A stretch of 64,000 nucleotides of DNA from Acidobacteriota bacterium (GTDB lineage Bacteria; Acidobacteriota; Aminicenantia; JBFLYD01): the NCBI GenBank assembly GCA_040756905.1, contig JBFLYD010000069.1:10560-74559 (forward strand). Reading direction: 5' to 3'. The notes beneath the pieces are model-generated. The model saw only the letters and a program-made list of their open reading frames with translations, did no database searches and was not told where the DNA came from. Every line of letters starts with the position of its first letter. Position 1 is the first letter of the stretch. The position numbers and the translations under genes were made by a program. Shown one piece after another: positions 8,869 through 56,116 of the stretch.

Positions 8869-10269
8869 TCAACCAACAGCTCCTTCCATTTCAAGCTGGA
8901 TAAGTCTGTTCAATTCCACTGCATATTCCATAGGTAGCTCTCTTGCCACAGGTTCGATGAATCCTCTCACTACTAAAGCTGTGGCCTCTGCTTCCGAAAG
9001 CCCCCGACTCATAAGATAAAAAATCTTTTCCTCGCTTATTTTTCCAGCTGTTGCTTCATGAACAACTTCAACATTATCGGTGTGAATTTCGAGGATTGGA
9101 ATTGTGTCTGCTTTTGACTTTTCATCAAGGATAAGCCCCTGACAGCTTACACTACATTTTGAATTCTCAGCTCCCTCAACAATTTTAACAAGCCCTCTGT
9201 ATGTGGAAACGCCTCCATCTTTACTTATACTCTTGGAAACAACCACAGAACTTGTGCGGGGGGCTAAATGAATAACTTTTGCCCCTGTATCTTTTCTCTG
9301 GCCTTCTCCAGCAAATGCAATATTAAGATGCTCTGCTTTTGCTCCTCTGCCAACAAGAACTGATCCGGGGTATAGCATTGTAATACCACTTCCCAGAGAG
9401 CCACCCACCCATTCAATAATCCCATCTTTTCCAACAATTGCTCTTTTTGTGTTCAGATTATAAACATCCCTGCTCCAGTTCTGAATCGTTGTATATCTTG
9501 CTCTTGCATCCTCCTTTACAAATATTTCAACAACTGCTGAATGGAGAGATGAAAGACTGTAAAAAGGTGCTGTGCATCCCTCTATATAATGGACATAGCT
9601 TCCTTTTTCAGCAATAATCAAGGTATGCTCAAACTGACCACTCTGGGCAGCATTCATCCTGAAATAACTCTGAAGAGGAAAAGGAACATTAACTCCTTCT
9701 GGAACATACACAAAACTCCCTCCACTCCATACTGCTCCATGAAGGGCGGCAAATTTATTATCTGTATCTGGAACACATTTTGTCATAAAATATTCTTTTA
9801 CAATTTCAGGATAATTTTTCACTGCAGTATCCATGTCGCAAAAAATTACCCCTTTATTTTCTAAATGAGTTCTCAAGCTTTCATAAACTGCTTCTGATTC
9901 ATATTGAGCTACAACTCCTGCTAAAAACTTCCTCTCAGCTTCAGGAATTCCAAGTTTTTCATAGGTTCTCCTTATGTTCTCAGGAACATCCTCCCAGCTC
10001 CTCGCTTTTATTTCACCTGGTCTTATGTAAAAAGTAATATCATCAAAATTAAGACCTGATAAATCAGGGCCAAAATTTGGCATTGGCTTTTTTATGAATA
10101 TCTCATAAGCTCTCAATCTCTTTTCTCTCATCCAATCTGGTTCATTTTTTATATATGAGATTTCCTCTATTATCTCTCTGGATAAGCCTTTTTTTGCCCT
10201 GTAAGAATATTCTTCAGGATTTGGTATATCAATAAATTTTTTCCCTATCTCAAATATTTTTTTATTCAT
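8869..10269 (-). CDS. sufB: Fe-S cluster assembly protein SufB
   Basis: 466 aa with characteristic SufB motifs (CTAPFYS..LHSAVVEI, FAGEGQ, GAKVIHLAP). Confidence 0.9.
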   Translation of the reverse strand: MNKKIFEIGKKFIDIPNPEEYSYRAKKGLSREIIEEISYIKNEPDWMREKRLRAYEIFIKKPMPNFGPDLSGLNFDDITFYIRPGEIKARSWEDVPENIRRTYEKLGIPEAERKFLAGVVAQYESEAVYESLRTHLENKGVIFCDMDTAVKNYPEIVKEYFMTKCVPDTDNKFAALHGAVWSGGSFVYVPEGVNVPFPLQSYFRMNAAQSGQFEHTLIIAEKGSYVHYIEGCTAPFYSLSSLHSAVVEIFVKEDARARYTTIQNWSRDVYNLNTKRAIVGKDGIIEWVGGSLGSGITMLYPGSVLVGRGAKAEHLNIAFAGEGQRKDTGAKVIHLAPRTSSVVVSKSISKDGGVSTYRGLVKIVEGAENSKCSVSCQGLILDEKSKADTIPILEIHTDNVEVVHEATAGKISEEKIFYLMSRGLSEAEATALVVRGFIEPVARELPMEYAVELNRLIQLEMEGAVG

Positions 10270-10281
10270 CCCATAAACTCT

Positions 10282-11049
10282 TTATAATCTTTGACTATTC
10301 AGTTCTTTTCTCACCCAATCATATCCTTTCTCTTCAAGCATTTTAGAAAGTTCTTCCCTTCCTGATTTTACTATTTTTCCATCCATTAATATATGAACAA
10401 AATCAGGCTTAATGAAATTCAAGATTCTCTGATAGTGAGTGATTATCAAAATGCCAAGCTCTGGATTCATCAATTTGTTAATTCCCATCGATACTATTTT
10501 TAATGAATCGATATCAAGCCCTGAGTCTGTCTCATCGAGAATTGCAAGGGTCGGTTCAAAAACTGCCATTTGCAATATTTCGTTTCGTTTCTTCTCCCCC
10601 CCTGAAAAACCTTCATTTACATATCTTTTCAAAAAAACATCATCCATTTCAAGAAACTTCATCTTTTCTTTCAGGATTTTTCTAAATTCAAGAAAAGAGA
10701 TTTCTTTTCCATTCTTTGAATTGTATGTATTTCTTAGAAAGCTCTCCAAAGAAACCCCGGGAATTTCTTCAGGATATTGAAATGCCATAAAGATGCCTTT
10801 TTTTGCTCTCTGAGAAGTATTCAACTTTGTTAAATCCTCATTCAAATAAAATATACTACCCTCTTTAATTTCATACCTTGGATGACCCATAAGAGTGAAT
10901 GCAAGGGTGCTCTTTCCTGTGCCATTTGGGCCCATCAAGGCATGAATCTCTCCTTTATTAATCGAAAGATTTATACCTTTTAAGATTTCTTTCCCTTCGA
11001 CTTCAATTTTTAAATTTTCAATTCTTAATAAATTTCCGTTCATTTCCAT
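10282..11049 (-). CDS. sufC: Fe-S cluster assembly ATPase SufC
   Basis: Walker A GPNGTGKST, ABC signature FSGGEKKR, Walker B ILDETDSGLD. Confidence 0.9.
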   Translation of the reverse strand: MEMNGNLLRIENLKIEVEGKEILKGINLSINKGEIHALMGPNGTGKSTLAFTLMGHPRYEIKEGSIFYLNEDLTKLNTSQRAKKGIFMAFQYPEEIPGVSLESFLRNTYNSKNGKEISFLEFRKILKEKMKFLEMDDVFLKRYVNEGFSGGEKKRNEILQMAVFEPTLAILDETDSGLDIDSLKIVSMGINKLMNPELGILIITHYQRILNFIKPDFVHILMDGKIVKSGREELSKMLEEKGYDWVRKELNSQRL

Positions 11050-11450
11050 TGTTTAGCCTCCCTTTTCATGTTTTCGTTTGGACATATTCTTGCCTCTCCA
11101 TTTTTTTTACATTTGCGAGAAATAGCTCCGATTAAACATTTTTTTAACCTCTCCTCATCGTCTGAAAATGGCTTTTGGTTTTTCATCTCTTTTAAAGATA
11201 AAAGAATTAACTTTTGAATTTTTTTTATGTTCTTTTTATCAACAAAATAATAAACCCACTGTCCTCTCTTCTTTGTTGATAAAACCCCTGCATTTCTCAA
11301 AATCGAAAGGTGATGAGAAATTAGAGGTTGTGAAATTCGCAAAGACCCTCGAATTTCACATACACACAATTCATTATCCATGAGCACATTTATTATTCTT
11401 AGCCTTTGCTCATCTGCTAAAGCTTTTAAGGCATCCACTATTTCTTTCAT
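11040..11450 (-). CDS. ArsR/SmtB-family HTH transcriptional regulator with a Cys-rich C-terminal tail; likely suf operon regulator
   Basis: ADEQRLRIINVL..ELCVCEI..ISHHLSILRNAGVL is a classic ArsR winged-helix motif. C-terminal CLIGAISRKCKKNGEARICP. Overlaps the sufC start. Confidence 0.7.
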   Translation of the reverse strand: MKEIVDALKALADEQRLRIINVLMDNELCVCEIRGSLRISQPLISHHLSILRNAGVLSTKKRGQWVYYFVDKKNIKKIQKLILLSLKEMKNQKPFSDDEERLKKCLIGAISRKCKKNGEARICPNENMKREAKQWK

Positions 11451-11474
11451 ATAAATATATAAACAACCATTTAT

Positions 11475-11503
11475 ATAATATTTTTTATTTAAACATTTGT
11501 CAA
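11475..11503 (-). promoter_or_regulatory. Candidate sigma-70-type promoter of the regulator-suf-hyp operon
   Basis: Minus-sense TTGACA (plus 11498-11503), 17-nt spacer, TATTAT (plus 11475-11480), about 24 nt before the regulator ATG. Confidence 0.4.
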
Positions 11504-11559
11504 GCTCTTATTAAGTCGTAAAGTGAAGAAGTCAACTATCCCGTGAGCGAAGGGGGAAG

Positions 11560-14373
11560 TTACCACTTAAATTTAATAGCTATGCGGGCTTGGCGGGGTT
11601 CTTGTCTGGCCCAGACATGTCCAAAAACAATTGTATCCTCTTTCACAAATGATATTGGTTTTTGACTATTAAGCAGGTTGAAAACATCCAATCGTACATC
11701 AAAGATCAAATTCTCTGGAAAAATTTTAAAAAAATCGGATAGTAAAAGCCTTTTTTCAACTCCAACATCCACATAAAGATGGGAAGGAGTTTCTCTGGAG
11801 CCCCGTCCTTCTGGAAATGCATAATAGCCAAAAAAAGGAACCAGACCTAATTTTTCCCAATGATAGCCTGAAATCCATTCTAAAGCTGTAGAAAAAGCAA
11901 TCTCAAACGGTGCGAAATATACAATGTTCATTTTAACATTATGATCCACACTGTAAGGAAGTTTCCCATACCAACCTTCATCGCCGATTTCTCTCCCTCC
12001 TAAACCCCCTAATCCCCAGTCAAACAGCTTCTTCAATTCTCGCAATTCAGGTAGATCAGGGACAAAAATGTGATTTCCAAAAAGACCGACATAATAGGTA
12101 CTCCCCTCCTCCTGACTCCATGAGCCAGTTTCTACCTGGCCAGGGTTTGTCCCTTTAGCAGATGCGTATGAATAAGAGGCATTAAGGACGAATTTCTCCC
12201 TGATTTTTCCATTAACTTCTATTTCAAACCCTTTATAATCCCTTCTTTTATACTCAAAGTTATCAAAGATGAATTTATAATAGGGAGGTGATGGATCGAA
12301 TACTCCAAGAAGTTCCAGGAGATCCTTTGCCTGAGACCGGACAAAACGAGTTTTTAAGGCCCAATTTGCACCCAGTTTTCTATCAAATTCCACTAAATAT
12401 TTAGTAAGAAAATTTGGTTTTAAATTACCGGAAATCTCAAAAGGACCTTGATGCTCTTCATTGATAAACTTCCAATTCATTGGATTGTGCAATTGATTTC
12501 TATCAGGGTTTAAAGGGCCTATCCATCCATACCTTCTAAATTGAATAGGTGCCTGAGGATTAAAAAATCCCAGATGCATAGTAGTTGTTACATCAGAGAA
12601 CTTTCCCCAGCCTAATTTTAGGATGTTTTTCCCATCCCTGGCTAAATCTATTGCGAGGGAAGCCCTTGGTGAAAGAAAATCTCTTAAATCCCACTTCCAG
12701 AGTTCTTTTCCTTTGTCATTATAATTTATCTGAGTAGCACTTCTAAATCCCAGCATCAAGGTAAATCGATCCCAGGTTATTTTATCCTTAAAATATAAAC
12801 CTATCCCTCGAATTGAATTAACAAAATTAAAAGGCCCGTATTCCCATAAGAATGTGGGAGTCCCCCTATTATTTCTCCAGGTGTCAAAATAATATTTAGT
12901 CCCGCTATCAAATCCATTTTCTGGAAAAGGATCTTCATCTTTACCTGAGAAATCCACTCTAAACTCAGAAGAAACCCTATAATATTCAAATCCCAATCCA
13001 ACTTCATGCTCTCCAAGACCTCTTGTATTAAGATAATGGGTAAGTCTAAGAGTGAGATCGGCTCTTCGCTCATTATCTATTACTTTTCCCAAGGAATTGT
13101 TAACATTCTGGGCTACATCTTCAATGAAATATAAGGCCGGACCCAAATCATCATCCTTAGGTCTGATTAACGACTCAATCTTTACCTGTCCCAGAGAGGC
13201 TTCTACAAACGTGTTAGAAGAAATAATTCCTTTATAATTAAAACGGTACATATAATCAGTAAAGAAATCTATTTTATAGAGCTCGGGTCTACCAATACCT
13301 CCCCTTTGTTTAAATGGTCTGTTATATGCACTGCTGAAGGAAATGTTATGATTATTTGTTAAAGCCCAAGATAATTTTCCGAAGAAATTATTGGTTTTTA
13401 GACTCTGACTTCCCTTAGAAATGTATAGATAGTCAATATAATTCTCCTTAGTAACATCCTGATCAATAAAAATGTTGTTGGAAAAAAAGAACCATAATCT
13501 ATCTTTGACAATTGGTCCACCAAAATTCAAATACCAATTATATCTTGAAAATCTCTCCGGTTCAGAGGCAATAGATAATTGCGTCTCTCTCGAAGCTTGC
13601 AATTTTTTATCTCTAAGAAGGAGTACCAGTTCACCATGAAAATCATTACCTCCTGTTTTTGTGACAGCATTTACTATCCCTCCAAAGGTGGAAGCCAGAT
13701 CAGGGCTGAAAGGATCGGAAATAATCTGAATTTCATCAATAGCATCATAGTTAACTCGTATCCCAGCATTGTTTAGTCTAACACCTCTCATAGAAAGACC
13801 ATCTACTAACCAATTGTTGCCTTCCTCACCCTCCCCTCTAAAACTTGGCAATCCTACTTCAGCTGTTCCCCGTCGAGTATTTGATCTTACTCCAGTTACT
13901 CCTGGAGTAAATTTAACCACATCTGGTACAGTTCTAGCCTGGGAAGGAATAATTGCTAAATCTTCTGAACTTATTCTATAACTGGTATCAGTGGAGGTTT
14001 TATCAATTAATGGTGTTTCAGCTACAACCAAGACTTTTTCTTCAATTTTTGCTGGTCTCATGACTATCTTTAAGGAGGTTACCATTCCCAATTGAACTAT
14101 GACATTGTCTTGAACAATTGTAGCAAACCCTGGAAGTTCATAGATCAAAGTGTATGTTCCAACAGGTAAGAGAGGGAATGTAAAGGAACCATCTTGTTCG
14201 GTAATAGTATCTCTTTGTCCCTGGAGTTTAGGGCTTTTGGCTGTAACCACTACCCCTGGCAAAGGATTACCTTCCTCATCTACAATCTTACCGCTGATCT
14301 CGCCAGTTTCTTTTGCATATATTGAACAAATAAACAAAAGAAAGAGCAAAAAGATAAAATAAATCTTTCTCAT
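11560..14373 (-). CDS. TonB-dependent outer membrane receptor with an N-terminal carboxypeptidase-regulatory-like domain
   Basis: Signal peptide; GKIVDEEGNPLPGVVVTA..DGSFTF (CarbopepD_reg-like); plug and barrel regions; terminal KFKW aromatic C-terminus typical of outer-membrane barrels. Confidence 0.7.
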   Translation of the reverse strand: MRKIYFIFLLFLLFICSIYAKETGEISGKIVDEEGNPLPGVVVTAKSPKLQGQRDTITEQDGSFTFPLLPVGTYTLIYELPGFATIVQDNVIVQLGMVTSLKIVMRPAKIEEKVLVVAETPLIDKTSTDTSYRISSEDLAIIPSQARTVPDVVKFTPGVTGVRSNTRRGTAEVGLPSFRGEGEEGNNWLVDGLSMRGVRLNNAGIRVNYDAIDEIQIISDPFSPDLASTFGGIVNAVTKTGGNDFHGELVLLLRDKKLQASRETQLSIASEPERFSRYNWYLNFGGPIVKDRLWFFFSNNIFIDQDVTKENYIDYLYISKGSQSLKTNNFFGKLSWALTNNHNISFSSAYNRPFKQRGGIGRPELYKIDFFTDYMYRFNYKGIISSNTFVEASLGQVKIESLIRPKDDDLGPALYFIEDVAQNVNNSLGKVIDNERRADLTLRLTHYLNTRGLGEHEVGLGFEYYRVSSEFRVDFSGKDEDPFPENGFDSGTKYYFDTWRNNRGTPTFLWEYGPFNFVNSIRGIGLYFKDKITWDRFTLMLGFRSATQINYNDKGKELWKWDLRDFLSPRASLAIDLARDGKNILKLGWGKFSDVTTTMHLGFFNPQAPIQFRRYGWIGPLNPDRNQLHNPMNWKFINEEHQGPFEISGNLKPNFLTKYLVEFDRKLGANWALKTRFVRSQAKDLLELLGVFDPSPPYYKFIFDNFEYKRRDYKGFEIEVNGKIREKFVLNASYSYASAKGTNPGQVETGSWSQEEGSTYYVGLFGNHIFVPDLPELRELKKLFDWGLGGLGGREIGDEGWYGKLPYSVDHNVKMNIVYFAPFEIAFSTALEWISGYHWEKLGLVPFFGYYAFPEGRGSRETPSHLYVDVGVEKRLLLSDFFKIFPENLIFDVRLDVFNLLNSQKPISFVKEDTIVFGHVWARQEPRQARIAIKFKW

Positions 14374-15653: not shown

Positions 15654-15881
15654 ATTGACCTCCTACTTCTAATTAACCTTTTCCAATGTAATAAACATTG
15701 GCATGGACAATAATATTTCACTATATTAGATAATTAATATTTTTTAAAGTCAAGCTGACCATTAAGGAAACAAGGGAAGCTTTGTAGCATTTACTTGCTT
15801 CCAAAATATGAAATTCTTAAGAAAATAAAATTACTCTTTTTTTCTTTTAAAAATAGAAAAAAATATATAAAATTAGTGTTC

Positions 15882-16393
15882 ATGGTTGAAAAGAAAATTT
15901 CTTATTTCGTAAAAATAACACCTGTTGGAAAAATTTATATAGGCATGACTGAGAAAGGAATCTGTTTGGTATCATTTGAAAATTTTTCTCGGTCCAGGGA
16001 AATTTCTTCTAAAAAAGGTGAACACATAAAATTTATAAAAAAAGAAGAAGGATTTCCCGAATTAGAAAAGCAACTCGAAGAATACTTTTCAAAAAAAAGG
16101 AAAAAATTTAATGGGACTTTAGACTTATGTTTTGTAAATTCTCCCTTCGAACGAAATGTTTTAAACGCTTGCTTTAAAATTCCATATGGCAAAAAAGTTC
16201 TTATTCTCAAATAGCTGAGGAAATTGGAAGACCAAGAGCAGTAAGAGCTGTGGGAAATGCACTGGGTAAAAATCCAATAGCTATAATCATTCCCTGTCAT
16301 AGAGTAGTTGCAAAGGATGGATCTATTGGAGGATTCTCCGGAGGATTGTGGAGAAAAAAGAAACTCCTTAAACTCGAAGGAATTTTAAAATGA
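15882..16393 (+). pseudogene. ogt: Methylated-DNA--protein-cysteine methyltransferase (Ogt/MGMT) split by a -1 frameshift in an A6 run; pseudogene or sequencing error
   Basis: The ORF ending at 16214 carries the N-domain through FERNVLNACFKIPYGKK. The -1 frame continues SYSQIAEEIGRPRAVRAVGNALGKNPIAIIIPCHRVV with the PCHR active site, stop at 16391-16393. Adding one A to the A6 run at 16191-16196 restores IPYGKKSSYSQIAEEIG. Confidence 0.65.
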
Positions 16394-16659
16394 AAAACCC
16401 TTATGTAAGGGCAGGAATTCTATCTTGAGCTGAGGTTTACAAGTATATAGGAGGTACCAGAATCCAAAAAATTAAAATATGGCAAAAATTTAAATGGAAT
16501 AAAAATTATGAATCTTTTTGAGCCTGAAGAAGTTCCCGAGAAGGGGTGCAGTCCTTAAAATATCTTACTTAATTTATCATATTTGTCTATATACATAAAA
16601 AACAGGTCATTATAGAAATCTTTCATGAACCCTCATCCTTTCCTATTTGAGCCTCAATT

Positions 16660-17718
16660 TTATCTTTGAATCCGAGTTGGGAAATGCTTATACAGTTTTT
16701 CCCGGTATGAAATATAATCGCCATTTTCATCTTCATATAAATAATAATAATTACCTGCTGAGAAGGAAATAAAAAGGTGGGAATCTACAATATTAATGTA
16801 TTTATCCTCCAAAAGGTATTCTCTTAAGAAGATTCCCTTTGGGGAATATTTTTCAAATATTGTTTTATTATTTTTTTTCTTATAAGTTCTTATATAAACA
16901 TTGCCTTCATCGTCCAGAAAGAAGCTATGGAACGGTGGAAAATATTTTGGAAAGTGCAGTTGTTTTAAAAACGCATCAGCCATTTGTTTGCTTGTTATGT
17001 GAGGATCATGAATAAGGGTTTCAGCGAATTTTTCTTTGTATTCTTTTCTTACTTTTATTCTTTCACAATGCTTGAATACTTTACCGATCTGTTTTCCATT
17101 TTCATCGAAAATCATAATTAGAAAATCTCTTACAGGATTCGAAATGTATACAAGATCGGTCTTATCCGAATATTTAACACTGATAAATGGTTCTATTGCT
17201 TCAAATTGGTAGCCTGGTGTGACTTCTAAACGCTCATCTAAAATCTCAATTATTTGATTGAAATCTTTATCAAGGAATCTTATTTTTTGGATTATGGTTT
17301 TTCCTTTTTCATATGAAAAATCTCTAGTTTTTTCTATAAAGTTGCCGTTTTTTAAAAGGAGATAGAAATTGTTAGTAGGTGGAATTTTTACTTCGTTCAA
17401 TAAAGTCCCATCCAAACCAAAAATTAAAAGTCTATTGCGGGAAAAAGTGTAAATCTTGTCTTCTAAAAAATTGAAGTTGGAAAGATTAGATACTTCACCA
17501 GGACCTTCGCCCTTTTCTCCAATTTTATTTAAAAGTTTCAGCTCTTGGTCAAATCTCCAAATGTTTCCTTCGCTTGAATTTAGAAAGTAAAGACAATTTT
17601 TATATGCTTTAAACATTGAGATTTTCCCAACGATATTTATAACTTTTTCTTCATAGGAAGAAAGGAATGAAGAAAAAATAGCTATTGTTGCGAAAAGAAA
17701 TAATTTTTTCTGTTTCAT
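16660..17718 (-). CDS. Secreted NHL-repeat 6-bladed beta-propeller protein (paralog 1), translationally coupled to the upstream rSAM gene
   Basis: Signal peptide MKQKKLFLFATIAIFSSFLSS; NHL-type GEKGEGPGEV..P motif and beta-propeller periodicity. Its ATG overlaps the rSAM stop (ATGA). Confidence 0.6.
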   Translation of the reverse strand: MKQKKLFLFATIAIFSSFLSSYEEKVINIVGKISMFKAYKNCLYFLNSSEGNIWRFDQELKLLNKIGEKGEGPGEVSNLSNFNFLEDKIYTFSRNRLLIFGLDGTLLNEVKIPPTNNFYLLLKNGNFIEKTRDFSYEKGKTIIQKIRFLDKDFNQIIEILDERLEVTPGYQFEAIEPFISVKYSDKTDLVYISNPVRDFLIMIFDENGKQIGKVFKHCERIKVRKEYKEKFAETLIHDPHITSKQMADAFLKQLHFPKYFPPFHSFFLDDEGNVYIRTYKKKNNKTIFEKYSPKGIFLREYLLEDKYINIVDSHLFISFSAGNYYYLYEDENGDYISYREKLYKHFPTRIQR

Positions 17719-18782
17719 AATTCACCTTTATTGTAATCTTTCATTAATTCAAGAACGTATGGCTTTCTTGTTATATCACATTTTTTGTAATCTCCGTGGT
17801 AGCTATATGCAAGCATTGCACATCCACCATGACAATAATCAAGAATTTTACAGCTTTCGCATTCAGAATTTCGGATTGAAAGTGCATTAAATACATCATT
17901 AACATTACTCGATTCGTTGTAAATTTCAATTAATCTTTTGGCCCTAATATTTCCTAATACAATATTTTCAAGATTGTTGCAAGGGAAAACATCCCCTTGG
18001 GGTGATATTGCAATAATTCCAGTGCCAGCGTTACAGCGAAAGAGATCTTCTTTCTGCAGTTTTTTACTCAAGTCTTTTTTAATAAGCTTATTATAAATAT
18101 TATCATATGCAAATAAAAAATTCCTCAAGTTGTTTATATAATAAGTTAAAGAATCTTCAAAATTACAATATTTCCCTCTTTTAAAGGGCGTAATTGGAAG
18201 AAATTTCATATTATCTACTTTCAGAGATTTCCCGAGATTTATAATATCTATGACTTCATTACGATTCCCCTCATGAATTACAGTTGTTGTCTCAACATAA
18301 ATATTTAAATCCTTAAATATTCTAATTGCTTTAATTGCTTTTTTAAACGAACCTTTTAGACCTCGAAAAGTATCGTGGGTTTTCTCACCTGCTCCATCTA
18401 AGCTTATATTAATATGCACTAAATTATTTTTTACTAATAGTTCAGCATATGATTCATCGATTTTGTAGCCATTTGTCATTAAATGCGTTTTCATAGGTTT
18501 ATTACTTGCATATTTTATCAGTTCAGGTAAATAATTAACCAAGGTAGGCTCTCCACCAGTAAAAGTTACCCTTGGTACCATCATCCTATATATCTGATCG
18601 ACAAGATCAAATATCTCTTCTTTCTTCAATTCTTCTTTTAATCTTTGCCCTGCATCTACTGAACAGTGAATACACCTCGAGTTACAAGCATTTGTCAATC
18701 TTATATAAACATGGTTTAGAATACCTCTCATTTCAGGTAAATCGGAAAATTTATATTTAAGACCTCTATTTTCATTTGTCAT
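17715..18782 (-). CDS. Radical SAM enzyme with C-terminal SPASM/twitch auxiliary Fe-S domain (peptide/protein-modifying maturase class)
   Basis: CNSRCIHCS CxxxCxxC motif; GGEPTL; SPASM-like FRCNAGTG..SPQGDVFPCNN..CESCKILDYCHGGC. Confidence 0.8.
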   Translation of the reverse strand: MTNENRGLKYKFSDLPEMRGILNHVYIRLTNACNSRCIHCSVDAGQRLKEELKKEEIFDLVDQIYRMMVPRVTFTGGEPTLVNYLPELIKYASNKPMKTHLMTNGYKIDESYAELLVKNNLVHINISLDGAGEKTHDTFRGLKGSFKKAIKAIRIFKDLNIYVETTTVIHEGNRNEVIDIINLGKSLKVDNMKFLPITPFKRGKYCNFEDSLTYYINNLRNFLFAYDNIYNKLIKKDLSKKLQKEDLFRCNAGTGIIAISPQGDVFPCNNLENIVLGNIRAKRLIEIYNESSNVNDVFNALSIRNSECESCKILDYCHGGCAMLAYSYHGDYKKCDITRKPYVLELMKDYNKGEL

Positions 18783-18982
18783 GTTTTTTATTATTTAGAC
18801 AAAATTGCAAAATTTTGTAAGTCATTTTTTTCTGCCTCATTTATTTGTTTTTGTGATTCCCAATATAGCTTCCTTACTCTACTTTTTAGGAGCTAAAAGT
18901 TTATATCTCTTTATTGTTTTTTGAAGTTATCATCTTTACTTCTCCATTTATTCTTTCAAGTTTTCGATATTTAAGTGCAGCA

Positions 18983-19960
18983 CTATTTTATTGTAAGTTT
19001 ACATCTTTTTAATATTGGTATATCTGTATTATCAGCCAGATATAACCTCCCTTTTTCATCAACCCCTAAAATAGACTCATTGGTTTTTATTGATCCTATG
19101 TACTCTTTGTCTTTGAATATATCTATCACATTTCCATTAGATGTAAGTAATGATATATAAATCCTATTCTTATGACCTGAAATAAAACAAAACAACCAAG
19201 GCTCTACCCCTAAACTAACCCCTCTTTCATAGGTTCTTTCTACTATTTTTCTTTTAGGAAAATACGAGGAAGATCTCTCTATTTTATCAACGAGCTTTTT
19301 ATCTTTAAATATGACTATCTTGTACTCGAATTGATTTACTACATAAATATTATCTTTGAGAACAATAAACCCCATGGGCACCATTAACTCATAATATTCC
19401 TTGTATTTAATTGGTTGAGATTCTGGAGTAAACATTGAAATATTCCCGAATGATTCTAAATAATTTCCATTGAAATCAAAATAATGAAATATTTTGTCGT
19501 TTTTATAGCCCAACAGTAAGATCTTGTCTTCTATTACGCAGATATTATAGGCTCGGAAATCAATCTTAAATGTTTTTATAAACTCTCCTTTTTCATCAAA
19601 AATGTGAACTTTTCTATAATCAACTACAAATAGCCTTTCATTTTTATCAAGAGATATAAATGAGGGTACAAAAAATTCACCTGGTCCCTGACCTTTCCTT
19701 CCTATGCCTTTAAGGAATTTTCCATTTTTATCATAAACTTGAACTCTGCAGTTTTTCCTGTCAAGTACAAAAATATTTTCGCTCTTTCCAACTTTAACAT
19801 CATTTATTTCAGCAAACATATAATTTTCATCCTTTTCATCTTTTCCTAACACTAGGTCACATTCAAATCTTGCTCTATTTCCTAAATAATATTCTTGCGA
19901 AAATAGAGTGAAAACATTAATTAAAAGAAAAACAAAAATTATCTTTTTTCTCCCTTTCAT
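18983..19960 (-). CDS. Secreted NHL-repeat 6-bladed beta-propeller protein (paralog 2)
   Basis: Signal peptide; GRKGQGPGEFFVPSFISLDKNERLFVVDYRKVHIFDEKGEF is a textbook NHL repeat; paralogous to 16660-17718. Confidence 0.65.
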   Translation of the reverse strand: MKGRKKIIFVFLLINVFTLFSQEYYLGNRARFECDLVLGKDEKDENYMFAEINDVKVGKSENIFVLDRKNCRVQVYDKNGKFLKGIGRKGQGPGEFFVPSFISLDKNERLFVVDYRKVHIFDEKGEFIKTFKIDFRAYNICVIEDKILLLGYKNDKIFHYFDFNGNYLESFGNISMFTPESQPIKYKEYYELMVPMGFIVLKDNIYVVNQFEYKIVIFKDKKLVDKIERSSSYFPKRKIVERTYERGVSLGVEPWLFCFISGHKNRIYISLLTSNGNVIDIFKDKEYIGSIKTNESILGVDEKGRLYLADNTDIPILKRCKLTIK

Positions 19961-20094
19961 TTTTTCCCTTCCTCTTTTTTCATTTCACCAAAATATATAT
20001 TAGTATATTTTACTTCTTTTTCAATGTTCTTTTTAAGTAAATTAAATATTGAGGGTTTTCCTCAATAATTCTACAAAACAAAATTAACATTTTT

Positions 20095-20290
20095 AACCAA
20101 AATCTCTTATAACTTTTACATATTTGCCTTTTTCTCTTCCAACTGACAATCGGCAATCAGTCCTCCTTTCTTCATTCTCACCGACTCTTGTGAAGCATCT
20201 TTCCTCTACAGCTTGAAGAAGTTTTGACTGAAGATCTAAAGAGAGGTTTCCTATCCCATCAAAAAATACTGTTCCTTCATCTGCATATTC
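20095..20290 (-). pseudogene. Decayed internal fragment of a sigma-54-dependent (NtrC-family AAA+) transcriptional activator
   Basis: Minus-strand translation gives EYADEGTVFFDGIGNLSLDLQSKLLQAVEERCFTRVGENEE..., matching the Walker-B GAFxGA loop segment ([34 protein letters not shown]). It is flanked by stops and a G-rich tract, and no full ORF exists. Confidence 0.4.
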
Positions 20291-20524
20291 AATATGTCTA
20301 CTCTGTTATCCTTTAGGGGAGAGGGGGATGAGGGGGCAGAAATGTATTAAAATTAAATACGTTCTCATTAGCAAGAAAAGAAGTTTGGTCAATTTGAATA
20401 TTTAGAATTGATCTTGATACACACAATTGACCACTGGAAAGCAAGGTGAGACAATAGACACGTTAATTTTTTTATTACTTGAAATTTAATTTTAACAATA
20501 TTATATTATTAATGGAGGGAAAAG

Positions 20525-22219
20525 ATGAAAAAATATATAGCTTTTCTAATCCCCCTCTGTCTTTTGATGCTTATTTCTTATTCCAGTTCCTTCGAAAAAT
20601 ATAACTATTACTACGGTCATATAAGTTATGCAGAAAAAGGAACAAAAGTTTACAGAACTGATTACGATGTATATGAAGATGCAACTCTGAATTTGCCGGT
20701 TGGAGAAGGAGACATAATACTAACTGGAAAAGAAGGAAGGTGCGAAATCCAATTTGATAATGGAACTGTCATAAGGCTTGACTTAAATACAGAGCTGGAA
20801 ATTGAATCAATCCTCAGAGAAAATAAGGAAATAAAACTCGATGTTTCGTCGTTTATTCTCAAAGAAGGCAGATTATATGTTATGCACAGTGGTTACAGAG
20901 CCTTTGAAATGTTTCAGATAATGACAGAAAATGCTGGGATTTTACTCAAAAATCATACTGTTAGCATAATCGCTAAAAAAGAGGATGGTACTTTCATTCA
21001 GGTTAAAAATGGAAAAGTCCAGGTAAGATATTTAGATGAGAAAAAAGAGACACAGACTTTTGAAATGAAAAAGAAAAAAGCATTTCTTATTACTCTCGAC
21101 AATAAAGTCCAAGAACAAGAATACAGTGAATATTCAGATTTTGAAATTTGGAATGAATACATCAACACCCATTACAATGAAACTCATGAGGGAAATTATC
21201 TTCCCAAGTCATTGAGAAGCTTTTCAGGGATGTTCAATAACTATGGATACTGGAGTTACATTGATGAACTTGGATTGTATGGATGGAGACCATATTATTT
21301 AGACTACTACTGGCATCCCTATTACTATGGCTACTGGTATATGTATGGCGGGTACCCTTATTGGGTTTCTCCTTACATGTGGGGATGGATTCCTTATCAT
21401 TATGGTTACTGGCATTGGACCTCAAAATGGGGTTGGATATGGATTCCTTATAGTTACTGGGCTCCAAGCTGGGTCTACTGGGGCTGGTTTGGCCCTTACT
21501 ATGGATGGCGTCCATGGACTTACTGGGATTATCAGAGAGCGACCTGGAAGCCTTACTATTGGTCAGATAAATTTTGGGACAACTGGAGACCGAGATTAAG
21601 AAAAGATGCCATAAAAAAGCCTGGTACAAAACCTGAAGAAGACATTGAAAAATATGTATTCATTGAAAAAGATAGAATTCATAAAACCGGTGAAATAACC
21701 GAATATCTCAGATATAAAGATATAAAAAATAAAATTGACAAAAAAGATATAGAAAAGAATAGCAGTAATTCTCCACCAGAAGAATTGATCAGAACCTTAA
21801 AAGAAAATAAATTAATCAATTCAGGAAAAATACAGATTATCTATGAAACTCCAATGGATAGAAATATCAAAAATATTCAGGCAAGAGACTCTGTTAAAAC
21901 TCCTAAAGTCACAATTAAAGAATCTTATACTCATATAAAACCTGATGTTGGATTTTCAAAACCAATAGAAAACATAGCCAAATGGAAAGTGGAAAAGTTT
22001 AATAACAATAGAAAAAACATTGATTGGGAAAAACACTTTGAATCTTCCAAAAGATGGACAAATCGGCATAGAGGAGGCCATTCAGCAGGCTCAGGAGGTT
22101 CAGGGGGAGGTGGCTCAGCAGGCTCTTCAGGATCTTCTGGCTCTTCAGGAGGAGGCTCATCCTCTAAAGGAGGCGGAGGAAGAGAAGGGGGAGGCGGAAA
22201 AACAAAGGACAGCAGTTAG
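20525..22219 (+). CDS. Secreted FecR-domain protein with a Tyr/Trp-rich low-complexity domain and Gly/Ser-rich tail
   Basis: Signal peptide; FecR-like segment (ATLNLPVGEGDIILTGKEGRCEIQFDNGTVIRLDLNTELEI). A ~125-aa stretch of about 45% Y+W (YGYWSYIDELGLYGWRPYYLDYYWHPYYYGYWYMYGGYPYWVSPYMWGWIPYHYGYWHW...). Ends GSGGSGGGGSAGSSGSSG. Confidence 0.6.
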   Translation: MKKYIAFLIPLCLLMLISYSSSFEKYNYYYGHISYAEKGTKVYRTDYDVYEDATLNLPVGEGDIILTGKEGRCEIQFDNGTVIRLDLNTELEIESILRENKEIKLDVSSFILKEGRLYVMHSGYRAFEMFQIMTENAGILLKNHTVSIIAKKEDGTFIQVKNGKVQVRYLDEKKETQTFEMKKKKAFLITLDNKVQEQEYSEYSDFEIWNEYINTHYNETHEGNYLPKSLRSFSGMFNNYGYWSYIDELGLYGWRPYYLDYYWHPYYYGYWYMYGGYPYWVSPYMWGWIPYHYGYWHWTSKWGWIWIPYSYWAPSWVYWGWFGPYYGWRPWTYWDYQRATWKPYYWSDKFWDNWRPRLRKDAIKKPGTKPEEDIEKYVFIEKDRIHKTGEITEYLRYKDIKNKIDKKDIEKNSSNSPPEELIRTLKENKLINSGKIQIIYETPMDRNIKNIQARDSVKTPKVTIKESYTHIKPDVGFSKPIENIAKWKVEKFNNNRKNIDWEKHFESSKRWTNRHRGGHSAGSGGSGGGGSAGSSGSSGSSGGGSSSKGGGGREGGGGKTKDSS

Positions 22220-43499: not shown

Positions 43500-44397
43500 T
43501 TTTCCTCGCGATGAGTATTAATTCGTCTTTCTTATTTAAAAATGCAGAAAATAAAATGAGCAAAAAAAAGATAGGTTTGAACATTTTTCTTAAGATAAAA
43601 TTTTCAGGAATATAATTCATTCTACAATCAATATTTTTTGTGTCGATGCTATTTTCATGCTTGTAATTTAAGGCTTCAAATCCACACTTCTCGAGTAACA
43701 ACTTAATATTTCTCAAATTATAAAAGTAATAGTGCTTATAATCCCATTTTAATTGGAAAAGAATAATAAGGGGATATTTAATTTTCCCAAAAGTAATTTT
43801 ATAAAGCAAAATTGCAAGAGATGACAAAAGTCCATGGGATGAAGGGATGCGCATGGCAATTATTCCATTTTTTTTAACTATGGAATTTATTTTATTAAGA
43901 AATAAATATGGGTCTGGTACATGCTCAAACACTGACCACATGGTCACCACATCGAAATAATTTTCTTTGAAGTTTATATCCTTTAATTCCCCTCTTATTA
44001 CTTTGTTTCTCTCTCGGGCAATGCTGTATGCAATTCTTGATGGCTCTATTCCATATGAAATAAATCTATTATTTCCTGCTATTTCAAGAAACCCTCCTGT
44101 TCCGCAACCAACATCCAAGAGCTTGCCTTCTTTTTTGTATTTTTTGATAAACTCGATTTCTCTTTCATACTGAGGTATTCTAAAGAGTCTTATAAATTCT
44201 TTGTATCTTTCAATATCAAAACCTACATAGTCCTCTCCTAAAGATTTTAGTCTTACAATTGGGTTCATCTGGATCAATTTACAATCTTTACATTTATAGA
44301 AATTGTTATTCTCGATTGAGAACAACAGCTTTAATTTCTTTTCACCACAGAGAATACAAGTTTTATTATTTACATCTTGGTCTGGCATTTTAATCAA
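43483..44397 (-). CDS. Class I SAM-dependent methyltransferase with N-terminal Cys4 zinc ribbon
   Basis: CILCGEKK...CKDCKL ribbon, then LDVGCGTGGF (motif I). Confidence 0.7.
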   Translation of the reverse strand: MIKMPDQDVNNKTCILCGEKKLKLLFSIENNNFYKCKDCKLIQMNPIVRLKSLGEDYVGFDIERYKEFIRLFRIPQYEREIEFIKKYKKEGKLLDVGCGTGGFLEIAGNNRFISYGIEPSRIAYSIARERNKVIRGELKDINFKENYFDVVTMWSVFEHVPDPYLFLNKINSIVKKNGIIAMRIPSSHGLLSSLAILLYKITFGKIKYPLIILFQLKWDYKHYYFYNLRNIKLLLEKCGFEALNYKHENSIDTKNIDCRMNYIPENFILRKMFKPIFFLLILFSAFLNKKDELILIARKNGKNL

Positions 44398-47125
44398 AAT
44401 TTAAGTCTTCTATAAAATCTTTAAACATTGTGTATTTATTCTTAAAAAAACTCTTTAAATCTGGGTATATTTTCATATAATCAAAAGCCAGATTTTTATC
44501 TCCATCAATTTTTATAACAAATTGAACTCTGTTTTTAAAACTTTTGTTTTTGAATTCAAAGGAAGCCAGTGAATAATTTTCTTTTACTTCTACCTTAAGG
44601 TCTAAAGGAAATTTAATCGATTCTTCCTTCTCTTCATTTTTAAAAATAATTTCTAATTCTCCTATTAAACCTCTGATCCTTGATGGATTATAAAAATACA
44701 ATTCAGCTATATAATTTTGAGGGATGAGTCTTTTCTCAGAAGAAACGGCCTCGAATACGTTACCATTCTGATTGAACGAGGGCATCAAAGCTTTGCCATT
44801 AAAGAAAATTTCTGATTCAATCAAATTCCCATTTATAAATTTAAACTCGTCATCTTCTATCAAATTTGTTTGAGTCCCTTTATATAATATGTAACCTATT
44901 CCTGAGAATTTTTCAAAGTTTCTAATCCATTCTTTATCATTCCCGAAGGAATCGAAGATTTTCAGATATTTTTTAAAATCTCTATCTTTTGAAATATTTT
45001 CTATATACTTTTTCCTTTCTTGGTTTTTGTCGAGCATCTTCGAACAATAATCCAAGTACAGATAAATTTCTAAATCCTTCTTATTTTTATTCTTGTTTTT
45101 AAGGGCTTTTAAAAAAAACTCCTCAGCCATATTAAAGTTTTGTAATTTTAAGAATTCTGAAGCTATATCAAATTCATCAGCACTCAGTTTTATAAAAGCA
45201 TTGTTTAGTTCTTTTGACGCTTTTATTGTTATCTTATAGATATATTTGTAGAAAGGAAAAGAAAGCATTGGGTCAATAACTTCATATGAATTGATTCCTT
45301 TTTTAACTTTTATTCCTTTCTTTAACAAAAAATTATTTACATAAACTTCTCCGTCGCTTTCTGGACTAAATATAAATATAGCAATTTGAGGTATTTTTTT
45401 TCTGCTTATGAATATTCTTTTTACTTCCTGATTTTTATCAATAAAAAAACTATTTATATCTTTCCCATAAACACTTCCGTCAGAAATTTCAAATTCTCTT
45501 ACCGGATTTTTATCAGCCATAACGGAAGGTAATGAAATTCTCTGTTTCACTCTATTTTGATTTTTCCCATTGTACATCTTTACTTCAGGGTTCTTGAATT
45601 CTATTTCTTTAAAATAAAAATCTTTGATCAATTCATGTTTAAAATTTAAATTTTTATACACAGGAGCTAAATCAGGATAGTATTTTTGGTTTTTTAAAAA
45701 ATGAGAATAACAGGCACTTGTCGATAAAATAAAATCAAAATTTCCAAACGGAGGAAAATCTCTCCAGAAAAGATAGGGTCTTGTAAAGAAAGTGTACTTG
45801 TAATTTTTATCAGATATCACAGGAAAAAACCATTCATTTCCAAAATTACTCTCCTCAGGAACATTTCTTCTTATCCATCTCTCTGCTATTTGAGTTGTAT
45901 CATCTTCCCAGAGGTAATAAACTTTGGAGAAAGCTCTATATCCCATTGAAATTACCAAAAAAGCGATCAACATAGAAAAAAAAACTCTGGTAATCTTATT
46001 ACTTTTAAGAAGAGAATGGACGAATAATATGCCAAATACACCAAAAAAAGAATAAAAAATAGAAAGAGTTGAAAGATCTCTTAAGCGAGAAAACCCAAGA
46101 AATCCAAGAGCTCCAAAAAAATAAATCAGTCCTGACAGAAAAATAAATAAATTCTCTCTGGTTTTTTTATAAAAAATCCAAGCAATTCCAAATAAAATTA
46201 AAATGAAATATATCGCCCCTTCAGTGGTAAATATATTCCAGATGCCTTGAACATATCTATTAAATTTTATTTGTTCAATTAAATTCTCTGGTTTAATTGG
46301 CCTTAAATACCATTCAGTTTCATGAACAAGATTGGTTAATAGAACTGAAGCTTTTATGAACATTTTGAACCTTAATAAAGCATAGGGATGTCCAGCAAAG
46401 AAGCCAAGAACTGTAAATATTCCAGCTAAAAATATTTTATAATCGCTTAAAATCTTAAAAAACCTTTTCTTTGCCTCAAATCCATACAGAAAATGTGCAA
46501 GAAGAATCGAAAAAATTATGAATATTCCATTGTATTTAGTGGCAACTGCAAGACCACTGAAAAAAGAAGCTAAAAGATAATAAATCAGCATGCCTTTTTT
46601 CATAATTAATGCACAAAAATAAAAAGATAGGGCATAAAAGAAAGTCATTGGAACATCAAGAACAATTTGATGGCTATAAAGGATATGTATAAAAGAAACT
46701 GAGAATAAAAAAGAAATTCCAATAGCTTCTTCTTCTGAATACAACTTCTTTCCTGTAAGATAAACAAGAAGAATTGTAAATGAACCCATCAATGAGGATA
46801 CAATTCTTGAAATTAAAAGTATATGATCAAATGAGAAATTATAGAGGTCAAAAGAAGAATTGAAACTTATTAAAGACAGAAATCCTGAAATTAATCTTAA
46901 TATTACTGCAACGATATAATTAAAGAAAATCGGATAGAAAAGGACAGGGTCTGGTTTCCAGTTTCCATGGTAAATTCTCTCAATATCTTTAGCAACAGGA
47001 ATATCATCTATTCTCTGATAGACTGAAGAAATTCCCCATATTCTTAAAAAGCACCCCATGACAAAAATAACGGAAATAAAAAGAAAAATTTGATGCTTTT
47101 TTATATATCTGAAGAGGTTTATCAT
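44390..47125 (-). CDS. GT-C fold (PMT_2/ArnT/TMTC-like) polyprenyl-phosphate-sugar-dependent glycosyltransferase with a large C-terminal TPR-like extracytoplasmic domain (paralog 1 of 4)
   Basis: About 11 TM helices in the first ~400 aa with the conserved TKY motif (VATKYNG); long soluble C-terminal half containing TPR-like helices. Confidence 0.6.
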   Translation of the reverse strand: MINLFRYIKKHQIFLFISVIFVMGCFLRIWGISSVYQRIDDIPVAKDIERIYHGNWKPDPVLFYPIFFNYIVAVILRLISGFLSLISFNSSFDLYNFSFDHILLISRIVSSLMGSFTILLVYLTGKKLYSEEEAIGISFLFSVSFIHILYSHQIVLDVPMTFFYALSFYFCALIMKKGMLIYYLLASFFSGLAVATKYNGIFIIFSILLAHFLYGFEAKKRFFKILSDYKIFLAGIFTVLGFFAGHPYALLRFKMFIKASVLLTNLVHETEWYLRPIKPENLIEQIKFNRYVQGIWNIFTTEGAIYFILILFGIAWIFYKKTRENLFIFLSGLIYFFGALGFLGFSRLRDLSTLSIFYSFFGVFGILFVHSLLKSNKITRVFFSMLIAFLVISMGYRAFSKVYYLWEDDTTQIAERWIRRNVPEESNFGNEWFFPVISDKNYKYTFFTRPYLFWRDFPPFGNFDFILSTSACYSHFLKNQKYYPDLAPVYKNLNFKHELIKDFYFKEIEFKNPEVKMYNGKNQNRVKQRISLPSVMADKNPVREFEISDGSVYGKDINSFFIDKNQEVKRIFISRKKIPQIAIFIFSPESDGEVYVNNFLLKKGIKVKKGINSYEVIDPMLSFPFYKYIYKITIKASKELNNAFIKLSADEFDIASEFLKLQNFNMAEEFFLKALKNKNKNKKDLEIYLYLDYCSKMLDKNQERKKYIENISKDRDFKKYLKIFDSFGNDKEWIRNFEKFSGIGYILYKGTQTNLIEDDEFKFINGNLIESEIFFNGKALMPSFNQNGNVFEAVSSEKRLIPQNYIAELYFYNPSRIRGLIGELEIIFKNEEKEESIKFPLDLKVEVKENYSLASFEFKNKSFKNRVQFVIKIDGDKNLAFDYMKIYPDLKSFFKNKYTMFKDFIEDLNFD

Positions 47126-47210
47126 TAGAATTAAAAATTATAATGAATGGAAAGTATATTTTCAATGAATTAGAAGGATAACATCATTCAGGAATATTAA
47201 GTTGTAAGGG

Positions 47211-48017
47211 TTAGATATTTAAATAATCCTTTATTGAACTGAATTTAAAGGATTCTAATAGTCTATCCAATTTTTTCTCGGCAGTTTTAAGATTAACATA
47301 ATGAATAAATCTTTCCTTAAAGGGTAAATCTAATTTGGGGGTTAAATCATCTATTTCACGGGGATGCAAATAGATCATAGCTGGCTGATTTTGTTTATTT
47401 AAATTTTTAATCCCCATCTTGATAAAAGAATAAGGAAAAAACCTTAGGTAAAAACCCCCTGAAAACGGTACTCTCATTCCTAATAAATTTAATGTTGTGG
47501 CGGGAATCTCTATTATATTGTTTATCCGATAAGGAAACCTCTCTGCATATCTGTCGCCATAAAGAAAGGTTTTCATTGGAAATATACTTGAATCATATAT
47601 AATTTCATTTCTTTCAAGTATCCTGAAAAACCAATCGAAATTCTGATAAGATGACCATGAAGGTGCTCTATAACCTACGATCTTCTCACCAGTAATTCCC
47701 TGAAGAACATCGATAGACCTTTTTAAATCTTCTTCGAATTCTTCAGGACTCTGTTTATATACAAGAACATGACTGTATCCATGAGTAGCAATTTCATGTC
47801 CTTTTTCCTTTATCATCAAAACAATATCAGGGTATTTCTCCGCAGTTCTGGCAAGAATGAAAAAAGTAGCTCTTGCATTATGCCTTTCACATAGGGAGAG
47901 AAATCTTTGAGTGTTAAATTTAAGTCTTTCATCCTCTCCAAATTTCCCTAAAAGGTCTACAACATCATAATTTGCATGAAACCATTCTTCGATATCAAAG
48001 GTTAAAAGGTTAATCAT
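47211..48017 (-). CDS. Polysaccharide deacetylase (CE4) family protein, ArnD-like, PEP-CTERM-locus subfamily
   Basis: N-terminal LTFDIEEWFH signature and NodB-type His motifs (THGYSH). Confidence 0.7.
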   Translation of the reverse strand: MINLLTFDIEEWFHANYDVVDLLGKFGEDERLKFNTQRFLSLCERHNARATFFILARTAEKYPDIVLMIKEKGHEIATHGYSHVLVYKQSPEEFEEDLKRSIDVLQGITGEKIVGYRAPSWSSYQNFDWFFRILERNEIIYDSSIFPMKTFLYGDRYAERFPYRINNIIEIPATTLNLLGMRVPFSGGFYLRFFPYSFIKMGIKNLNKQNQPAMIYLHPREIDDLTPKLDLPFKERFIHYVNLKTAEKKLDRLLESFKFSSIKDYLNI

Positions 48018-51824: not shown

Positions 51825-51829
51825 ATAGA

Positions 51830-52626: not shown

Positions 52627-52638
52627 TGTTTTTCTCCT

Positions 52639-56108: not shown

Positions 56109-56116
56109 ATCTAATT

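Follow-up and report, generated by a model that had tools for sequence, protein, structure and literature searches.

The stretch of DNA analysed here, 64,000 nucleotides of an Acidobacteriota bacterium (assembly GCA_040756905.1, contig JBFLYD010000069.1, positions 10,560 to 74,559; below, the window), carries on its minus strand the gene of a radical S-adenosylmethionine (rSAM) enzyme with a SPASM domain, placed between the genes of two secreted β-propellers, propA and propB. With a probability of about 0.6, this locus is a degenerate copy of a rare gene cluster of the kind that makes peptides synthesised by ribosomes and modified after translation (RiPPs), a cluster that falls outside the curated families; the peptide would be made in intact relatives, and the propellers are perhaps peptide binders. 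Sequence comparison indicates that the substrate of the family is a small dedicated peptide and not the propellers. Since the window has no precursor, no RiPP recognition element (RRE), no promoter and no activator beyond a fragment, the locus is taken to be a remnant that has decayed or been rearranged. As both RRE and precursor, each a defining feature of a working maturase system, are absent, the window copy is not classed as a functional member. A preliminary description, made from the sequence alone, had put the locus forward as a candidate modification system; it is better read as a degenerate copy than as a working system, and its functionality is doubtful.

Layout of the locus

The locus comprises the following features.

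16397–16412, minus strand: terminator-like hairpin following propB, where a propA–rSAM–propB transcript probably ends (consensus scan)
16660–17718, minus strand: propB, 352 aa, secreted six-bladed propeller of DUF5128 whose gene is coupled in translation with that of the rSAM enzyme and is the clade's conserved partner gene
17715–18782, minus strand: radical SAM/SPASM core, 355 aa, with three intact cluster-binding Cys motifs and without the N-terminal PqqD-like RRE (about 90 residues) of its clade
18783–18982, minus strand: 200-nt spacer between propA and the rSAM gene, where orthologous loci have the sigma-54 promoter, the precursor gene and the 5′ portion of the rSAM gene that encodes the RRE; all of these are missing here
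18983–19960, minus strand: propA, 325 aa, secreted DUF5128 and NHL six-bladed β-propeller, a divergent member of the cluster-associated propeller set
20047–20067, minus strand: terminator-like hairpin upstream of propA, between the activator fragment and the three-gene block (consensus scan)
20144–20293, minus strand: remnant of a sigma-54-dependent activator that covers about 50 residues of the AAA+ sigma-54 interaction domain, in a reading frame ending at 20093

The three open reading frames (ORFs) and the ATGA at 17715–17718, in which the rSAM stop codon overlaps the propB start codon, were already given in the preliminary description and are confirmed, on the minus strand. The terminator calls are those of a consensus scan only, which found 4 sites against 1.6±1.5 in shuffled sequences; between propA and the rSAM gene it gave no such site. 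As the hairpins flank the block and none lies between its genes, a three-gene transcript propA–rSAM–propB is plausible. The G+C content of the block is 0.29–0.31 and that of its flanks is higher (0.33–0.37).

The rSAM/SPASM enzyme and its clade

The window enzyme matches the Pfam models Radical_SAM (PF04055; 1.3e-27, 97.5 bits, cut-off 29.5), SPASM (PF13186; 1.2e-08, 35.5 bits, cut-off 21.5) and Fer4_12. In the clade alignment, the CxxxCxxC motif of the SAM-binding [4Fe-4S] cluster (C33/C37/C40 in the window enzyme) is invariant across 21 members, and all seven C-terminal cysteines (C250, C268, C308, C311, C317, C321 and C335), the motif of two auxiliary clusters, are conserved. The Pfam matches and the clade-conserved Cys bear out the earlier recognition of a SPASM rSAM enzyme, which had rested on the CxxxCxxC motif and a C-terminal Cys cluster. 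Attribution of the window enzyme to peptide-maturase-type rSAM/SPASM proteins is supported.

A scan against NCBIfam gave about 80 generic rSAM/SPASM similarities for the window enzyme; it reaches no curated cut-off, including those of anSME, PqqE, MftC and TIGR04133. The QhpD model is not among its 25 best matches, which were inspected for it. Scores were as follows.

AhbD: window enzyme 145 bits, cut-off 500
MftC: window enzyme 127 bits, cut-off 265
PqqE (TIGR02109): window enzyme 119.2 bits, cut-off 381.35; pqq genes were not found in the window
anSME (TIGR03942): window enzyme 89.8 bits, cut-off 349.45
TIGR04133: window enzyme 90.6 bits, cut-off 425
StsB: window enzyme and full-length orthologue P0002 134–138 bits, cut-off 625
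AlbA: window enzyme and P0002 91–97 bits, cut-off 850
PapB: window enzyme and P0002 79–88 bits, cut-off 340
SkfB: window enzyme and P0002 87–93 bits, cut-off 300

The NCBIfam cut-offs of WgkB and DynA are likewise far from being reached by the window enzyme and P0002. PADLOC matches to pVip were rejected as generic rSAM-core similarity, and NCBIfam, Pfam and PADLOC gave no curated family name for the enzyme or the precursors.

Relatives were collected by a search of 5.8 billion proteins. They form a clade of about 22 sequences, 46–81% identical, below which identities fall to generic rSAM levels. The sequences come from metagenomes and metagenome-assembled genomes (MAGs), and the few labelled members belong to Acidobacteriota and Omnitrophica. 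A scan of genome contigs for further relatives was swamped by generic rSAM patterns and gave a single true relative, locus L003; a scan of metagenome contigs returned L001 again and nothing else.

Nearly all clade members are about 445 aa long (446–465 aa for the enzymes of L001 and L099), and several have precomputed matches to PqqD (PF05402). According to the alignment, nearly all orthologues possess an additional N-terminal domain of about 90 residues, a PqqD-like RRE, which is missing in the window enzyme. Orthologue P0019 is short merely because of a contig end and has its RRE; in P0006 (L087), the RRE is cut by an insertion sequence (IS) element. The full length of one orthologue can be aligned to the models of AlbA (residues 34–414) and StsB, and the part from residue 31 to that of CteB; this full-length alignment points to an RRE–rSAM–SPASM architecture of the orthologues.

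Locus L090 also contains, at 957–2225, the gene of a second, very divergent rSAM-like protein of 422 aa, with the motif CSKNCDIC and a Radical_SAM match only at E 0.009. The gene lies upstream of a C39 fragment, and its product may be a second maturase or a pseudo-rSAM.

Precursor peptide, promoter and export in related loci

A precursor of 52–63 aa is encoded directly upstream of the enzyme in all eight loci with an intact RRE and upstream sequence (L001, L002, L003, L088/89, L090, L096, L097/98 and L099–101). The L001 precursor is MFDPKLIFEPDIDLEERACIGIVAPSCNSWWDSNSQCQCKSGCITPSWTSTSSN, and that of L099–101 is an uncalled ORF. The core has the pattern P-x-C-x3-W…S[E/Q]C….GCI.P.W, in which the three Cys and a Trp are invariant and the segment P-x-C-x3-W…S[E/Q]C….GCI is invariant or nearly so; Asp and Ser are found near the invariant Cys and Trp. 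The N-terminus bears a leader motif, MF[N/D/E]P..I. A profile search for precursors recovered only seven database members, and neither Pfam nor NCBIfam holds a model for the family. The preliminary description had left the substrate as either the propellers or a small peptide; the second option stands for the family, but not for the window, where no such peptide was found.

Two precursors gave matches to LodA_C, sub-threshold in Pfam, which cover non-conserved leader residues and were not reproduced by a profile search of PDB sequences; the suggested link to LodA and cysteine tryptophylquinone was set aside as chance.

Gly-Gly leaders are present in L096, L090, L002 and L003, the last two from high-G+C Acidobacteria. 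They co-occur with genes of a C39-peptidase ATP-binding cassette (ABC) exporter and HlyD-type genes in L002 and L096, and with a C39 fragment in L090; in L097, an ABC exporter follows propB. In L096 and L097/98, sigma-54 −24/−12 consensus elements precede the precursors by 24–43 nt, and in L099 such elements lie just upstream; a TGGCAT −24-like element occupies the same place in L001 and L088. Activator genes lie upstream of the precursor in L088, L098 and, probably, L099. The C-terminal part of the L088 activator contains AAA_lid_14 and HTH_8, and that of L098 contains AAA_lid_14 only; the L099 activator is assigned solely by similarity to the L097/L098 gene.

In the intact cluster, a sigma-54 activator would drive the sigma-54 promoter before the precursor, and the RRE–rSAM–SPASM enzyme would bind the leader through its PqqD-like domain. 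The enzyme would most likely install intramolecular Cys cross-links, thioethers of the sacti- or ranthipeptide type, as suggested by the AlbA/StsB/CteB/SkfB-like architecture and the three invariant Cys. The product would be exported by the C39-peptidase ABC transporter together with HlyD, or by other ABC transporters. The signal-peptide-like N-termini imply that the propellers would act after export; outside the cytoplasm, they would serve as non-catalytic binders of the mature peptide, most plausibly as immunity proteins.

Losses in the window copy and decay elsewhere

Similarity of the window enzyme to an orthologue, both at the protein level and in the DNA alignment with L001, starts exactly at the ATG of the window rSAM gene, with protein homology from residue 3. 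An in-frame stop lies four codons upstream of this ATG, and no Shine–Dalgarno-like sequence precedes it. Neither a precursor nor a stand-alone RRE was found in the 64 kb by tblastn with two precursors and two RRE domains, and six-frame regular-expression scans with three core motifs found no precursor core; the small-ORF search recommended earlier, accordingly, brought no precursor to light in the window. The window also contains no match to the sigma-54 promoter pattern TGGYAY-N5-TTGCW. The activator fragment matches Sigma54_activat (PF00158; 4.7e-13) over profile positions 89–138 of 168, as well as NCBIfam sigma-54 regulators, and is devoid of the N-terminal part, the lid and the helix–turn–helix (HTH) domain; it is a leftover of the activator found in this place in relatives.

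At the junction of propA and the rSAM gene, about 500 nt of the expected sequence are absent, and a complete propeller gene with its own ribosome-binding site is found there. PropA is 28–32% identical to the extra propellers of relatives, compared with 67–81% for the enzyme and propB to their orthologues. The simplest account is a rearrangement in which propA, a propeller gene of another lineage, took the place of the promoter, the precursor, the 3′ portion of the activator gene and the 5′ portion of the rSAM gene that encodes the RRE, leaving a block of propA, truncated rSAM gene and propB bounded by terminator-like hairpins. When the surroundings of the locus were searched for repeats that might mark IS ends or recombination scars, nothing but short AT-rich repeats, attributed to chance, came up. 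As no substrate is encoded in the window, the enzyme could not make the peptide from window genes alone; the window propellers may persist as orphan protective or binding proteins.

Decay is seen in relatives as well. Besides the RRE interrupted by an IS element in L087, two independent assemblies show a split rSAM gene in L088/L089. The 128-kb contig L091 encodes a propB orthologue (53% identical), a second propeller and a propeller fragment, with no rSAM gene or precursor within ±10 kb of the propellers. The fragment, a 56-aa ORF at 9814–9984 between two intact DUF5128 genes (…CFYALETDEEGNQIITRYRYQIKLR), is the C-terminal remnant of a third propeller and shows gene turnover within propeller arrays.

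Several points weigh against the reading of the locus as a degenerate RiPP cluster. The rSAM core of the window does not diverge faster than its relatives (60–63% identity to the outgroup, against 58–65% for full-length orthologues), so either the loss of the RRE is recent or the core is still constrained; this relative-rate check is uninformative about recent loss. With three intact ORFs and no acceleration, the truncated enzyme may still be active, for instance with a precursor and a stand-alone RRE whose genes lie beyond the 64 kb. The contig comes from a MAG in which the neighbouring ogt gene looks frameshifted, so that an assembly artefact at the propA/rSAM junction is possible. Most of the related contigs are short (2–8 kb), and the counts of loci therefore rest on few, partly related metagenomic sequences. 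The chemistry may be thioether formation or another cross-link; since a Trp is invariant too, a Trp-centred cross-link is possible. Lastly, the role of the propellers is drawn from gene context, and a 350-aa periplasmic propeller would be atypical as a RiPP immunity protein.

The first two of these points, together with the conservation of all catalytic and SPASM Cys, would fit a functional split system, in which the RRE-less enzyme matures a peptide encoded elsewhere in the genome, perhaps with a stand-alone PqqD-like RRE, and the propellers act as in intact clusters. Other rSAM systems are known to use discrete RRE proteins, PqqD among them, and the lack of a terminator-like site between propA and the rSAM gene means that the latter can be transcribed. 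Such a system is nevertheless unlikely: the 64 kb contain no precursor motif or RRE-like sequence, the sigma-54 activator is only a fragment, there is no sigma-54 promoter match and no Shine–Dalgarno-like sequence before the new ATG, and the precursor is adjacent to the enzyme in every one of the eight relatives with an intact RRE and upstream sequence.

An intact locus whose precursor and RRE were lost in assembly or binning of the MAG is very unlikely. The origin of the contig and the adjacent ogt, which appears to lie in two frames and may contain sequencing errors, are consistent with an artefact. The junction, however, is no simple frameshift, given the missing 500 nt and the complete, unrelated propeller gene with a ribosome-binding site; moreover, the activator is truncated too, and independent relatives (L087 and L091) are similarly decayed.

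Propellers: family, conservation and possible role

Both propellers belong to DUF5128 (PF17170, '6-bladed beta-propeller'; cut-off 22.9), with 42.0 bits for propB and 61.7 bits (8.6e-17) for propA. PropA also matches NHL (PF01436; 1.9e-07, 31.2 bits, cut-off 20) and DUF4934. PropB has no PF01436 match at E≤0.01; its AlphaFold (AF2) model, with a predicted local distance difference test score (pLDDT) of 87, is an NHL-type propeller according to Foldseek, where the best matches are NHL domains (template modelling (TM) score 0.43–0.59). The nearest folds are the NHL domains of Brat, TRIM and Thin and the B12-binding BtuG lipoproteins, with modest TM-scores, and no enzyme family was matched in Foldseek or among PDB sequences. 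The only PDB sequence match of propB is 4RAA (2.2e-09); propA matches NHL domains and 4RAA. The earlier designation of both as NHL propellers can thus be refined: both are six-bladed DUF5128 proteins, of which propA alone passes the NHL model and propB is NHL-type by Foldseek. They had also been called paralogous, which is correct as to the family, but they are very divergent, with 36% identity over 33 residues only (BLASTP, E 6e-5). Both have signal-peptide-like N-terminal segments, as judged by eye.

A role of the propeller as glutaminyl cyclase or amidating lyase was considered and rejected: the predicted termini of the core are unfit (no N-terminal Gln/Glu and no C-terminal Gly), and neither enzyme is among the 50 best Foldseek matches of propB.

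A propB-like propeller, either an orthologue or a more distant gene, immediately follows the enzyme gene in nine of the 11 distinct loci (the window, L001, L086, L088/89, L090, L094, L096, L097/98 and L099–101), so the rSAM–propeller adjacency noticed in the window is conserved. The propeller start overlaps the rSAM end in eight of these nine, by ATGA in six and by 11–14 nt in L086 and L094. PropB orthologues (13 database entries) are 43–81% identical, and for the propB-like genes at a greater distance the figure is about 30%. Across the orthologues, neither a Cys nor any other evident target motif is conserved; a conserved motif of propB, HFP.YFPPFHSF, lies on one face of the propeller. L002 and L003 contain no propeller, yet have the same precursor and enzyme. 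Extra divergent propellers are encoded in L088 (two downstream) and L090 (one upstream and one more downstream), and it is these to which propA shows its 28–32% identity; propA itself is not conserved at its position in relatives. Propeller paralogues are 22–35% identical, and the copy number varies from one to three per cluster.

In L086 (twice) and L094, propB is followed by genes of an ABC ATPase (about 255 aa) and a polytopic membrane protein of about 550 aa without a Pfam match, which may constitute the immunity or export transporter of the cluster.

L086 2340–4765 and 6667–9047: ABC ATPase/polytopic pair, duplicated around IS fragments
L094 1499–3963: ABC ATPase/polytopic pair

It is proposed, with low confidence, that the propellers bind the exported peptide, for example as immunity proteins. 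Binding or self-protection is favoured because the propellers are dispensable for the peptide (L002 and L003), variable in number and retained after biosynthetic loss (the window and L091); the ABC ATPase/polytopic pair after propB, the binding propellers among the nearest folds and the lack of an enzyme match also count for it.

Alternatively, the propellers may be partner or tailoring proteins outside the cytoplasm that depend on the cross-linked peptide, either as a prosthetic small subunit, as in QHNDH (quinohaemoprotein amine dehydrogenase), or as an exported substrate processed by the propeller. The tight translational coupling of the rSAM gene and propB in eight of nine loci, the abundance of invariant Cys and Trp in the core, near which Asp and Ser occur, and the weak LodA_C match of two precursors, a model from a cysteine tryptophylquinone enzyme, would agree with this. 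QHNDH maturation includes an ABC exporter (QhpF) and resembles the clade in having an rSAM/SPASM enzyme, a small Cys/Trp-rich peptide, a secreted β-propeller and ABC export. QHNDH itself unites these elements: the rSAM/SPASM enzyme QhpD cross-links the small Cys/Trp/Asp-rich γ subunit, and the β subunit is a β-propeller (PMC8172795). A partner role is, nonetheless, improbable. Dihaem QhpA, the protease QhpE and the monooxygenase QhpG, as well as qhpB and qhpC, are absent from the window and the related loci examined, and no locus contains a haem subunit, flavin monooxygenase or subtilisin-like gene. The propellers of the clade differ in being six-bladed NHL/DUF5128 proteins of variable number, dispensable in L002 and L003, which keep precursor and enzyme; conversely, propellers persist without peptide or enzyme in the window and L091. 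PropB has no enzyme-family match, QhpD is outside the 25 best NCBIfam matches, the LodA_C match is below threshold and unreproduced, and the core termini do not suit glutaminyl cyclase or amidating lyase. It is the dispensability, variable number and retention of the propellers, together with the absence of redox partners, that disfavours a QHNDH-type role. Similarly, little credence is given to the more exotic possibility that DUF5128 propellers and the cross-linked Cys/Trp peptide form a secreted holo-protein, with the peptide as ligand or prosthetic subunit, or that the RRE-less window enzyme has been recruited to a new substrate such as the propellers.

Direct modification of the flanking propellers by the truncated enzyme, in the manner of anSME and sulfatases, is the subject of one more explanation. 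Some SPASM enzymes, such as anSME, have no RRE and act on proteins, and the rSAM gene is located between two propeller genes and overlaps one of them. This is, however, extremely improbable: the enzyme is cytoplasmic and the propellers bear signal peptides; in propB, no Cys or evident target motif is conserved; the ancestral enzyme is RRE-dependent with a dedicated peptide; the anSME score is 89.8 against a cut-off of 349; and propA is not conserved next to the enzyme in relatives. The propellers as substrates, one of the two options of the preliminary description, consequently find no support, all the more as the propeller-free loci keep precursor and enzyme.

Comparison with known systems

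In its working, the cluster resembles RRE-dependent rSAM/SPASM RiPP systems, but no curated family includes it. The sacti- and ranthipeptide synthases AlbA, SkfB, StsB, CteB and PapB resemble the clade in the N-terminal PqqD-like RRE, the CxxxCxxC core and the seven-Cys SPASM domain; further points of likeness are a Cys-bearing precursor directly upstream and, for some leaders, the Gly-Gly type with a C39 ABC exporter. The clade differs from them in scoring far under all curated cut-offs, and the window copy in having neither RRE nor precursor. To our knowledge, the AlbA, SkfB, StsB, CteB and PapB systems have neither sigma-54 control nor secreted DUF5128 propellers coupled to them.

TIGR04133 (the 'rSAM_w_lipo' pair of Haft) represents an rSAM/SPASM gene conserved beside a putative secreted protein or lipoprotein gene. 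The window locus is like this pair in concept; its partner is a DUF5128 propeller without a lipobox Cys, and the enzyme scores 90.6 against 425 bits.

DUF5128/BF3164-type propellers of Bacteroidota (4RAA, 'putative exported protein') are, like the window propellers, secreted and found in paralogous arrays, as in L092. A tandem pair of distant DUF5128/TolB_like propellers, 27% identical to propB, is encoded at 10001–12564 of that contig; there is no rSAM gene in the 10 kb upstream, and the contig ends 2.2 kb downstream. These distant tandem members, unlike the propB clade, thus have no rSAM gene in the stretch examined, which suggests that the association with rSAM enzymes may be specific to the propB clade and not general to DUF5128.

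A literature search on DUF5128 propellers and on rSAM RiPPs with propellers returned nothing relevant on the precursor family, propeller coupling or sigma-54 control. The initial impression that this is not a described system agrees with that search and with the curated cut-offs, none of which is reached, that of anSME included (89.8 bits against 349.45).

Other genes of the window

The gene content of the window was assessed by a Pfam scan of all 43 ORFs of at least 180 aa. They encode, among others, a TonB-dependent-type outer-membrane protein, FadL, TolC, a FecR-like protein, Suf and carbamoyl-phosphate synthase genes, glycosyltransferases and PMT_2 paralogues. No sulfatase, pqq, mft, qhp or C39-exporter genes were found among these 43 ORFs, in agreement with the earlier remark that no known cofactor-pathway context is nearby.

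Gene ogt (O6-methylguanine-DNA methyltransferase, Ogt/MGMT; 15795–16393, plus strand) appears to be split into two frames, of which 15795–16214 encodes the N-terminal Methyltransf_1N domain and 16250–16393 the PCHRVV active-site motif; it is either a pseudogene or the result of a sequencing frameshift in the MAG. On the other side of the locus, positions 20525–22219 (plus strand) encode a secreted protein of 564 aa with a FecR domain and DUF6600; its middle segment (…YWHPYYYGYWYMYGGYPYWVSPYMWGWIPYHYGYWHW…) is unusually rich in Trp, Tyr and Pro, and its C-terminal tail is rich in Gly and Ser. The region 44390–58870 (minus strand) contains four large paralogous PMT_2-type (ArnT/dolichyl-phosphate-mannose-like) glycosyltransferases of 911, 644, 924 and 917 aa, interleaved with polysaccharide deacetylase, methyltransferases, GNAT and GT2. 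Its G+C content is very low (0.27–0.30), and it is probably a cell-envelope glycan island.

Significance

The family represents a compact RiPP-like cluster that is directly testable: a sigma-54-controlled precursor with a fixed Cys/Trp core, an RRE–rSAM–SPASM enzyme and a coupled secreted DUF5128 propeller, all in uncultivated bacteria. It may point to new cross-link chemistry, and it offers the first genomic handle on a possible role of DUF5128 propellers, the binding or neutralising of a modified peptide. If the propellers and the peptide did form a holo-protein, this would be a new analogue of the design that combines a propeller with a cross-linked small subunit, as in QHNDH and methylamine dehydrogenase, and the first function for the large DUF5128 family. 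The window locus is mainly an example of cluster decay with persistence of the genes for the secreted partners; better leads for RiPP and DUF5128 biology are its intact relatives L001, L097 and L099.

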